Part shown: positions 54,913 to 56,025 of the stretch, one piece after another
Numbering within the stretch: the first letter of the stretch is position 1
How the letters are laid out: each line of letters starts with the position of its first letter
Assembly (NCBI GenBank): GCA_031260805.1
Contig: JAISKV010000001.1
Span: forward strand, 20,978 to 84,977
Direction of reading: 5' to 3'
Source: Rickettsiales bacterium
Lineage (GTDB): Bacteria > Pseudomonadota > Alphaproteobacteria > Rs-D84
DNA length: 64,000 nucleotides
Notes under the pieces: model-generated
What the model was told of the DNA's origin: nothing
Seen by the model: the letters and a program-made list of their open reading frames with translations, nothing else
Databases searched by the model: none
Translations under genes and position numbers: made by a program

Positions 54913-56025
54913 ATGAAAAAGTTATTGGCATTATTTTCACTTTTCACTTTTCACTTTTCACTTTCCGCCGCAGTAGCGGCGGAATACAACGCCGTCTTGG
55001 TTGCGGACATGAATACCGGACATGTGCTGTATTCCGAACGCGCGAACGATCTTAATTATCCGGCGTCATTGACCAAGATAATGACGCTGTACCTGACATT
55101 TGACGCGATAGAGCATGGCCGGCTGCGCCTGGATCAAAATCTGATTGTTTCCAAAAAGGCGGCCGCGGCCAATCCTGTGAAACTGGGCGTGTCGCCGGGC
55201 AGCAAGATTACTGTGGACAGCGCGATACGCGCGGTCGCCGTGCACAGCGCGAATGATGTCGCGCGCGTGCTGGCGGAAAACTTGACCGGGGACGAAGGCG
55301 ACTTTTCAGGACTGATGACGCGCGTCGCGACGGAGATAGGATTGGCGCGCACGAATTTCGAGAACGCGTCCGGATTGCCCGATGACGAGCATTTGTCCAG
55401 CGCCCGCGACATCGCGCTGCTGGCGATGGCGGTGTACAAGCACTTTCCGCAATACTGGCATTATTTCAGCACGAAATCATTTGATTGGGATGGCAAGACT
55501 TATTACAACACGAACGCGCTGCTGGGGACTTACCCGGGATGCGACGGCATGAAGACGGGATACACGAACAAGTCAAAATACAGCCTGATTGCGACGGCGC
55601 GCCGCGGCAATGCTCAGATTTTATCCGTGGTTCTGGGCGCGCCGAACAAGGATGTCCGCGCGGCAGTATCGCGCCGCATGCTGGACCGCGGGTTTGCCAT
55701 TGTTGGCGGGGCGCCGGTAAAAGAGAGTGAAAAGTGGAAAGTGAAAAGTGAAAATAATGTTCAAGATTCGTATCACGAATCACGAATTACGAATCACGCC
55801 GCCGTCAGCGTCGGCAATGCCGGCGTGCAATTCGGCGCGTTTTCTTCCGCCGCCGCCGCCCAGCAGCAGCAGGTGCGCGTGCGGAACCTGCTGGGCGTGG
55901 AAACCGTTCTGGAAAAATTTAATGGGATGACGCGCGTGCGCGCGAATGGGTTGAGTGAGAATTCCGCCCAAGAAATAAAACACAATGCCGGGTCGCGCGG
56001 CTTGGATTGCTATGTCTTCCATTAA
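54913..56025 (+). CDS. dacC: D-alanyl-D-alanine carboxypeptidase (PBP5/6 family, S11) with C-terminal SPOR domain
   Basis: Signal peptide. SxxK (ASLTKIM), SxN (HSANDV) and KTG (KTGYT) motifs. Low-complexity linker. SPOR-like C-terminus (VQFGAFSSAAAAQQQQVRV...). Confidence 0.8.
   Translation: MKKLLALFSLFTFHFSLSAAVAAEYNAVLVADMNTGHVLYSERANDLNYPASLTKIMTLYLTFDAIEHGRLRLDQNLIVSKKAAAANPVKLGVSPGSKITVDSAIRAVAVHSANDVARVLAENLTGDEGDFSGLMTRVATEIGLARTNFENASGLPDDEHLSSARDIALLAMAVYKHFPQYWHYFSTKSFDWDGKTYYNTNALLGTYPGCDGMKTGYTNKSKYSLIATARRGNAQILSVVLGAPNKDVRAAVSRRMLDRGFAIVGGAPVKESEKWKVKSENNVQDSYHESRITNHAAVSVGNAGVQFGAFSSAAAAQQQQVRVRNLLGVETVLEKFNGMTRVRANGLSENSAQEIKHNAGSRGLDCYVFH

Follow-up and report, generated by a model that had tools for sequence, protein, structure and literature searches.

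The stretch of DNA analysed here, hereafter the window, comprises 64,000 nucleotides of a Rickettsiales genome (contig JAISKV010000001.1, positions 20,978 to 84,977) and carries many tandem arrays of seven-nucleotide words (heptamers), most of them between genes and some of them translated in frame. Our gene map is based on open reading frames (ORFs) and was checked against Pfam for key genes. Central to this report is dacC (54913-56025, + strand), which encodes a D-alanyl-D-alanine carboxypeptidase of 370 residues: Peptidase_S11 covers residues 26-244, and the C-terminal 76 residues form a SPOR domain (23.9 bits against a cut-off of 21). Tandem Repeats Finder (TRF) located three arrays on its coding strand: (TTTTCAC)x4.4 at 54934-54964 (100% matches), which forms the h-region of the signal peptide (residues 8-18), and, in the linker between the two domains, (AGTGAAA)x4.1 at 55726-55754 and (ATCACGA)x3.9 at 55772-55798, the latter encoding HESRITNH. 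The translation contains LFSLFTFHFSLS (54931-54966) and ESEKWKVKSENNVQDSYHESRITNH. Two statements of the original prediction, a reading of this DNA from its letters alone, are thereby borne out: that the linker peptide is encoded by repeat words, and that the signal peptide is written in the complementary word, although the latter segment is 54931-54966 and not 54943-54966. Overall, the sequence features described there are confirmed apart from slight shifts in position, whereas the interpretation given to them is supported only in part.

The signal-peptide array and the first linker array lie within the arms of one inverted repeat (54929-54965 and 55723-55759, 37 nt each, + strand). The arms are 95% complementary, are separated by 757 nt and enclose the peptidase domain, and the 3' arm encodes ESEKWKVKSEN. 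Complementarity runs 5 nt beyond the arrays (CATTA/TAATG), and the predicted RNA duplex of the arms has a free energy of -52.2 kcal/mol, compared with a mean of -6 elsewhere in the mRNA. TTTTCAC and ATCACGA are free of stop codons in every sense frame, and in the AGTGAAA array the second unit reads GTGGAAA, which turns an in-frame TGA into TGG (Trp). The linker also shares an identical 24-mer (55727-55750) with an intergenic array of the same family (13268-13291 within 13264-13295, + strand, TRF; 14-mer unit GTGAAAAGTGGAAA), which begins directly 3' of the stop codon of an acyltransferase gene. This 24-mer and the mirror-copy arms of dacC support a copying link between the coding repeats and arrays elsewhere.

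Apart from the protein itself, the nearest relatives of this DacC share only about 66% of its residues. Both sites, the signal peptide and the linker, are also occupied by arrays in termite-gut orthologs with 62-66% identity; the DacC arrays are therefore not insertions peculiar to this genome, the point for which an alignment with orthologs had been proposed as a check. Among 80 species-representative genomes with a DacC relative, those with arrays near the gene were L001, L003-L006, L008, L009, L013 and L065. Their words vary: the signal peptide is built from TTGTCAC, from TTATCAC (L003, L004), TTTTCAT (L005), CTTTTGC (L006), TTATTCT (L013) or TTCATTG (L065), and the linker from AGAGTAA-type words (L004, L065) or, as in the window, from ATCACGA (L004, L008), with AAAGTGA, AGAGTGA and AGAGTAA as related linker words across the DacC set. 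ATCACGA recurs at the same linker site in L004, L008, P0002, P0006, P0016 and P0021; HES(R/Q)(I/V)T was found in five protein clusters, NHESRVTN is among the ortholog motifs, and SEKWKVKSE of the window aligns with SEEWRVES, SKELRVES and SKEYRVES of relatives. Signal peptides measure 21-25 residues with and without arrays, and the linker, of 43 residues in the window, spans 37-53 residues in array-bearing and 34-78 in array-less proteins.

The DacC arrays were in frame in every ortholog examined, and the codon that would read TGA, TAA or TAG is TGG, TTG or TAT (Trp, Leu, Tyr). Counting the methyltransferase RsmA described below, stop avoidance was seen in five independent in-frame arrays: DacC of the window (TGG), of L004 (TTG) and of L065 (TAT), and RsmA of L013 (TGG) and of L004 (GGA). 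The replacement of the stop-position codon in each ortholog shows translation of the arrays and selection for an open frame. The placing of the complementary arms varies. Both hairpin arms lie within the DacC linker in L065. In L005 and L013 the signal-peptide array has an upstream partner, giving a hairpin that surrounds a terminator, a conserved TTGACC promoter and the start codon of dacC. We rejected an ancestral complementarity of signal peptide and linker, as the words that relatives carry at the two sites are not complementary; the 37-nt arm pair of the window thus points to recent homogenisation. We take the DacC arrays themselves to be older than the divergence of the termite-gut species, shared between them and evolving in concert.

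The arrays were confined to contigs of termite-gut type among the 80 genome loci and 80 metagenome loci compared: Candidatus Enterousia and other mammalian-gut genomes had essentially no heptamer arrays near dacC, and the 80 metagenome contigs with rpsC showed the same split, with termite-type densities of up to 1-3.5 arrays/kb and control periods at about 0. The metagenome-assembled genomes (MAGs) Cu122, Nt197 and Lab288 originate from higher termites.

Period 7 stands out across the window. A strict scan found ten period-7 arrays, none or one of each other period from 4 to 12, and 0-0.05 in shuffled sequences; a lenient scan found 34 arrays, and TRF gave about 50 period-7 rows, mostly of 3-7 copies with a mode of 4-5. 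At least 12 different AT-rich words occur in the 64 kb, rather than one dominant word per genome, and the recurring families are AAGAATT, AAACCTT, AAAAGTG, AAAAGAT, AATAATG, AACTCTG and AACTAAT. Matches to GTGAAAAGTGAAAA with at most one mismatch numbered 10 where 0.07 were expected, and CACGAATCACGAAT was observed twice (0.08 expected). Coding sequence is largely spared: ORFs cover up to 89% of the window but hold just 181 of the 1057 array bases, an approximately 39-fold depletion, and these coding bases are divided among dacC (92), tolB (25) and overlaps with gene 3' ends (the remainder).

The majority of the arrays form inverted pairs that fold as long stems, begin at or just 3' of stop codons and occupy the stretch from one gene's stop codon to the ribosome-binding region of the next gene; the paired arms are near-exact mirror copies. 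In 260 kb of array-bearing sequence, 130 of 210 arrays had an inverted partner, and 95 lay at stop codons, which 54 overlapped and another 41 followed within 30 nt. Two composite hairpins recur as near-identical copies with terminal inverted repeats, namely family A, with four copies of about 95 nt in the ribosomal-protein operon, and family B, with two copies of about 175 nt at 92% column identity. Target-site duplications were not evident at the borders of either family, and no transposase was identified within the window. An Rfam search of the window gave a single tRNA match, the heptamer hairpins matching no family. Intrinsic terminators were rejected by inspection: the hairpins are AT-rich, lack a T-tract and stand within ribosomal-protein operons.

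We also ruled out a family A mobile element reaching into the right flank that its copies share. This flank, GCGAACGAAGTGAG, precedes start codons in relatives that carry different hairpins, and its conservation there marks it as a leader motif and not the end of an element. The leader, GCGAAC(G/A)AAG(T/A)GAG(C/T)AAA, stands a few nucleotides 5' of the starts of the highly expressed genes rplB, rplV, rplP, rpsN, fusA and rplF (for example at 37350-37373 and 39920-39943) and is present too in L081, L082, L091 and L094. It looks like the translation-initiation region of this clade and not like a part of the repeats.

The stop codons of cdaA (11085-11087), lepA (25341-25343) and rpsC (39846-39848) all lie inside the first units of downstream arrays. 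For cdaA the position of the stop is as had been predicted. Its hairpin (11078-11285, + strand, TRF) joins (TAAGGTT)x6.1 at 11078-11120 to (ACCTTAA)x6.7 at 11239-11285 through a loop of some 118 nt. K-V-stop falls within the first unit; the nearest representatives of CdaA, which are distant (at most 58% identity) and end differently, are shorter by one residue. For lepA only the position of the stop codon stood. The lepA hairpin (25335-25415, + strand, TRF) consists of (AAGGTTT)x5, a 10-nt loop and (ACCTTAA)x5, folds at -46 kcal/mol (z = -10.2) and encodes K-V-stop in its first unit, but these codons are not supplied by the repeat. The ending ALK(V/I/M) is conserved in 120 homologs, close array-less relatives end in ...CTGAAAGTTTGA, ...AAAGTGTAA and ...AAGGTATAA, and the hairpin word AAGGTTT(G/A)A is the native 3' end itself; since array-less relatives end in ALKV-stop, K-V-stop is native. 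The original prediction had itself named residues shared with orthologs as the sign of ordinary conserved sequence. After the conserved Leu, LepA of E. coli and Thermus has 7-9 residues, that of most relatives 4-5 and that of the window 2. The identity of the word suggests that the lepA array was seeded at the native K-V-stop. In a close array-less relative (L161, 318-2163) the gene calls divide lepA into two (318-1466 and 1501-2163), with an A-rich, stop-containing stretch between them. The lepA hairpin of the window is followed by a tyrosine-recombinase-like ORF (25418-26410) with a weak Phage_int_M match, and a similar gene is present 3' of lepA in L163 (2957-3114).

The K-D-K-R-stop codons of ribosomal protein S3 fall in the left arm of the family A hairpin that terminates rpsC (39833-39918, + strand), which is built as (AAAAGAT)n, loop, (TTATCTT)n. 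The tail codons and stop thus do lie in the repeat, as proposed, but the tail SSEKDKR keeps the array-less length and nearly the same residues (SSEKRNK and SSEKKSK in array-less relatives; EYAGSSEK(K/R)xK). C-terminal residues and stops that come from arrays are found instead in relatives, whose S3 tails are lengthened by array codons and an array stop in L092 (GIGHRA), L124 (KVGGRK) and L134 (LTTKS), so that this general claim holds for these three and not for lepA of the window; in L082 and L083 the array-encoded lengthening of the S3 tail amounts to 18 residues. The spacer between rpsC and rplP contains a hairpin in every array-bearing lineage, built from differing words with arms that are still complementary, and a small GC hairpin in array-less relatives. 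Two further gene ends in the window carry arrays: (AAAAGTG)x3.4 (41353-41376, + strand, TRF) overlaps the TAA stop of rplN (L14), and a hairpin (ATTAAGA)n / (TAATTCT)n (40841-40974, + strand; lenient scan, inverted-repeat search and fold) begins in the last codons of rpsQ (S17), whose stop is likewise overlapped. The latter is one of several hairpins with loops of 65-90 nt that share a common layout across words and contigs (L084, 3063-3213; L085, 2794-2948; L124, 5016-5169; also L081). Inside these long loops the arm word recurs in degenerate form, together with an AAAGGAG-like, purine-rich motif that is followed in L084 and L124 by a short ORF running into the right arm.

Arrays in relatives' RsmA repeat the arrangement seen in DacC. 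In rsmA of the window (56617-57429) two variable loops flank the conserved core NLPYNxGTELLIxWL, and a weak TTCAGGA-like heptamer array (56950-56971, + strand, TRF score 30) lies in loop 1, after GDALK. Loop 1 is built from heptamers in the window (weakly) and in L004, L008 and L013 (strongly), where it measures 17-20 residues, compared with 16 in nearly all of 25 array-less orthologs and 14 in three of them; the gain is 1-4 residues at most. Loop 2 of L008 and L013 carries the reverse complement of loop 1, forming an inverted pair around the NLPY motif. The L013 arms fold at -49.8 kcal/mol, where array-less orthologs give values of -10.7 and -18.5, and a TGG variant in one arm is mirrored by CCA in its partner. 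L005 is also listed among the species with array-overwritten RsmA loops. Taken together, the DacC and RsmA cases demonstrate that arm pairs split around a conserved core recur in different genes and species. The lack of a length gain in the DacC segments and in RsmA loop 1 indicates that sequence was overwritten, not simply inserted, and goes against the insertion into coding DNA that had been proposed.

Two further envelope proteins contain repeats. TolB, identified by its TolB_N and PD40 domains (gene 14012-15337, - strand), has (TTTTCGC)x3 followed by TTTTCAA on its coding strand (15289-15313, - strand) in the signal peptide LFSLFAFQFLLF. This array, like the weak one in rsmA and those at the ends of rplN and rpsQ, was absent from the original prediction. 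In MltG the membrane anchor (IIFTFFTIFTLFTIF) is encoded by (TATTTTCAC)x4.9 (28249-28292, + strand, TRF). The tandem repeat that had been predicted here is real, but it is not a heptamer array, a classification we rejected because its period is 9; it is in frame by construction, contains a TTTTCAC core in each unit, gives an anchor of the usual length and had no counterpart among 70 homolog N-termini. The public annotation of MltG (P0121, 312 residues) begins at an internal Met (28232), directly at the anchor. In all MltG relatives the anchor is preceded by a basic tail, and this favours a start at the upstream ATG (28142).

The tail of this longer MltG carries, in frame, two inverted copies (SSRRKPGF, FRVKPGMT) of a second repeat family, the GC-rich palindromes GTCAT(T/C)CC(C/G)G..(C/G)CGGGAAT. 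About ten copies occur in the 64 kb, at 28168-28190, 28214-28237, ~20, 13518, 30181, 51369, 52553, 52583, 52697 and 52892. In L004 a copy in RsmA loop 2 (locus 5118-5321) adds 17 residues (SQTAGLSPRRRPGLKPQ). We regard the GC-rich palindromes in MltG and in L004 RsmA as more like in-frame insertions of the type of Rickettsia palindromic elements (RPEs) than the heptamer arrays are. The window has other repeats as well. The non-coding stretch 51100-53010, 3' of the ribosomal-protein/rpoA operon, is dense in inverted repeats, among them pairs of GC palindromes and one pair with arms of 74 nt (51157-51230 and 51439-51512). Just 5' of a heptamer hairpin (60313-60421) stands a GC-rich inverted repeat with perfectly matching 37-nt arms (60116-60152 and 60276-60312, 123 nt apart). 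An ORF of 1323 residues (16224-20195) that has no Pfam match contains, at 17760-18152, tandem repeats with units of 120 bp and 87 bp.

We think it likely, though by no means assured, that these are lineage-specific heptanucleotide arrays which arise by slippage, are copied at the DNA level and occasionally overwrite coding sequence, with selection filtering the outcome. The arrays would form a single lineage-specific population of many AT-rich words, with 4-6 units each and mostly in inverted pairs; they are not RPE-like units of 100-150 bp, although they had been likened to RPEs. An array would be born by replication slippage in a 7-nt register, and spread and uniformity would come from DNA-level copying, either by intramolecular template switching or by gene conversion between arms or loci. 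The same copying process would occasionally overwrite coding DNA. The overwrites retained would be those in segments under low constraint (a signal-peptide h-region, membrane anchor, interdomain linker, surface loop or the last codons of a gene) that leave the frame intact and the length nearly unchanged, remain free of stops and yield a fitting peptide. TTTTCAC-like T-rich words and CACGAAT are open in all sense frames, and in A-rich words one unit in three reads TGA, TAA or TAG and would need changing; T-rich words would give hydrophobic peptides rich in Phe, Leu and Ser, and A/G-rich words linker sequence that is charged and probably disordered. Where arrays stand at gene ends, the native stop is abutted or overlapped by the left arm, which has stops in all three frames, and in some relatives the array replaces or lengthens the tail. 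The view that such repeats are tolerated as in-frame low-complexity peptide, present in the original prediction, agrees with their positions in an h-region, a linker, surface loops and C-terminal tails.

The split arm pairs raise a more specific possibility, which we put forward tentatively: a DNA-level process of copying, inversion and overwriting may place an array at one tolerant site and the reverse complement of that array at another nearby, and spare the conserved core between them. Alternatively, the intragenic pairing may be functional. If such a process exists, it would be a previously undescribed way of remodelling variable segments of housekeeping proteins at unchanged length.

Several observations weigh against the account by slippage, copying and overwriting. 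Slippage and template switching are events that we infer, and all-against-all BLAST of the array-bearing loci returned one overlapping pair (L082/L083), whose members are identical (99.98%, gapless). The model explains neither the period of 7 nor the size of 4-6 units. Array sites are retained in species whose DacC is only 62-66% identical, which is long for neutral repeats and could mean selection on the arrays or on their pairing. Both mismatches of the DacC arm pair are G.U in sense RNA, which taken alone fits an RNA structure, and the near-identical composites of families A and B would fit a mobile element too.

That last point belongs to the alternative that survives best, although we consider it unlikely: the arrays are arms of small non-autonomous mobile elements (miniature inverted-repeat transposable elements, repetitive extragenic palindromes or RPE-like elements) whose in-frame, stop-free insertions survive. 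The near-identity of the family A and B copies, loops and flanks included, is in keeping with such elements, but the right flank shared by family A is the conserved GCGAACGAAGTGAG leader and not an element end, and neither target-site duplications nor, in the window, a transposase were seen; a tyrosine-recombinase-like ORF does follow the lepA hairpin. Both arms lie together in the L065 DacC linker, as an inserted element would have them; elsewhere they can be split over two variable segments with conserved coding sequence between them, and the same site holds different words in different lineages. Length is added in frame by the GC-rich palindromes (17 residues in loop 2 of L004 RsmA, and possibly by two copies in the MltG tail of the window), whereas the DacC signal peptide, the linker and RsmA loop 1 have gained none.

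Selection on structure, by which the hairpins would be RNA elements (mRNA 3' ends, stability or processing) or DNA structures, with coding copies kept for functional pairing (over a long range within dacC mRNA, for instance, or in a stem that includes the dacC start), appears to us rather improbable, and less credible than mobility. It is consistent with the very stable folds, with the rpsC-rplP hairpin that persists in all array-bearing lineages and stays complementary despite the change of words, with arms that have changed together from lineage to lineage, both in RsmA and 5' of dacC, and with the two G.U mismatches of the DacC arms. Across 55 hairpins, however, the arm mismatches comprised 29 of G.U sense, 25 of A.C sense and 49 transversions, so that there is no wobble excess and transversion mismatches are as common as transitions. 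The arms in L005 and L013 flank a terminator and a promoter, the signal and linker words of DacC in relatives are not complementary, and the hairpins, inside ribosomal-protein operons, lack the T-tract of an intrinsic terminator. The absence of a sense-strand wobble bias and the arms that straddle terminator and promoter favour DNA copying over selection for RNA stems. The intergenic hairpins might act as intercistronic stem-loops.

The two remaining alternatives carry little weight. Heptamer repeats drive phase variation in Haemophilus, and the in-frame arrays could likewise be contingency loci, where adding or dropping a single 7-nt unit would turn DacC, or its SPOR domain alone, on or off. 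A 7-nt change is a frameshift, which in the linker soon reaches a TGA and leaves an intact peptidase without SPOR, and DacC, TolB and MltG are all envelope proteins. We nevertheless regard this as very improbable: the arrays are short (4 units) and imperfect, so that slippage would be slow; every ortholog examined has them in frame; and similar arrays occur in housekeeping rsmA as well as where lepA and ribosomal-protein genes end. An assembly artefact or chance resemblance is next to inconceivable, for although the window comes from a MAG and repeats are prone to mis-assembly, the features recur in independent assemblies (NCBI MAGs, JGI and ENA contigs) from several studies, with intact reading frames and a chance expectation of about 0.

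The over-representation of heptamers in many bacteria is described as unexplained in origin and role (PMC2700814, PMC4692102). The uncultured termite-gut lineage looks to be an extreme and unusually informative case, in which words are numerous, arrays are dense and orthologous sites allow one species to be compared with another. Its overwritten signal peptides, linkers and loops, with their kept length, stop avoidance and mirror arms, amount to a natural experiment. It bears on the way in which low-complexity segments of proteins are shaped by repeat dynamics and selection, and on whether copying or structural selection maintains the hairpin arms. There is a practical side as well, since arrays can mislead gene callers, as with the NCBI start of mltG at an internal Met, and can confound the inference of insertions from alignments. 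Our literature search found no paper on such arrays in termite-gut Alphaproteobacteria.

Several known systems resemble the arrays in part. In Xanthomonas (GGGAATC) and Nostoc (GGGGAYT), heptameric simple sequence repeat (SSR) arrays prefer about 4 units and are strongly non-coding, lying a mean of 28 nt from the 3' end of the upstream ORF, with 7-11% touching ORFs and 70-75 convergent inverted pairs per genome; related species have them at the same intergenic sites with variable sequence and length (PMC4692102). The same paper credits the heptamer excess of bacterial SSRs to Mrazek et al. 2007, and slippage is proposed there for the excess in general (PMC4692102). Our arrays share the 7-nt unit, the size of about 4 units, the intergenic bias near the upstream 3' end and the inverted pairs. 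They differ in consisting of many AT-rich words without G-tracts, where the Xanthomonas and Nostoc arrays have one G-rich, quadruplex-forming word, and neither the translation of arrays in housekeeping proteins nor arm pairs split across coding sequence is described for those genera.

The TAACTGA repeats of marine Beggiatoaceae, cyanobacteria and Bacteroidetes have 2-6 copies and are mostly intergenic, ribosomal-protein operons included; read forward they have stops in all three frames, with 13 arrays overlapping the stop of the upstream gene, and reverse arrays in ORFs are restricted to the protein periphery (PMC4679880). Heptamer arrays, overlap with stop codons, left-arm stops in all frames and tolerant protein sites are common to both systems. 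That system, however, uses only the word TAACTGA, with just one inverted case, its arrays stand just upstream of start codons, and orthologous in-frame arrays in conserved proteins are not reported for it (PMC4679880). Geobacter metallireducens has four- and five-heptanucleotide elements at dozens of intergenic and intragenic sites (PMC2700814). These, too, are dispersed families of about 4-5 tandem heptamers; they are GC-rich with few words, were proposed to be regulator sites or RNA elements, and their coding consequences were not analysed. The heptameric STRRs of cyanobacteria can be grouped with such dispersed heptamer families of the Geobacter type.

Two other systems concern repeats that are translated. 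RPEs are about 150 bp long, fall into ten families, each with a conserved peptide, and add 30-50 residues (PMC10969869). They are, like our arrays, alphaproteobacterial repeats translated in frame in unrelated housekeeping genes at tolerant positions; their descriptions set them apart, since the in-gene units here are tandem heptamers of 28-37 nt and not palindromes of 100-150 bp, and no block of residues is added relative to array-less orthologs. Tandem repeats of Borgs, which are archaeal extrachromosomal elements, give rise to disordered protein regions (PMC9879509). Both would be cases of fast-evolving tandem repeats tolerated in ORFs as low-complexity or disordered peptide, and the Borg abstract describes no heptamer hairpins. 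The closest kin of the arrays are thus the heptamer SSR arrays of Xanthomonas, Beggiatoaceae, Geobacter and cyanobacteria, and what we describe here is a variant of that kind. Relative to those systems, three features appear to be new: the many words per genome, the orthologous in-frame arrays with stop avoidance, and the inverted arms split across coding sequence.

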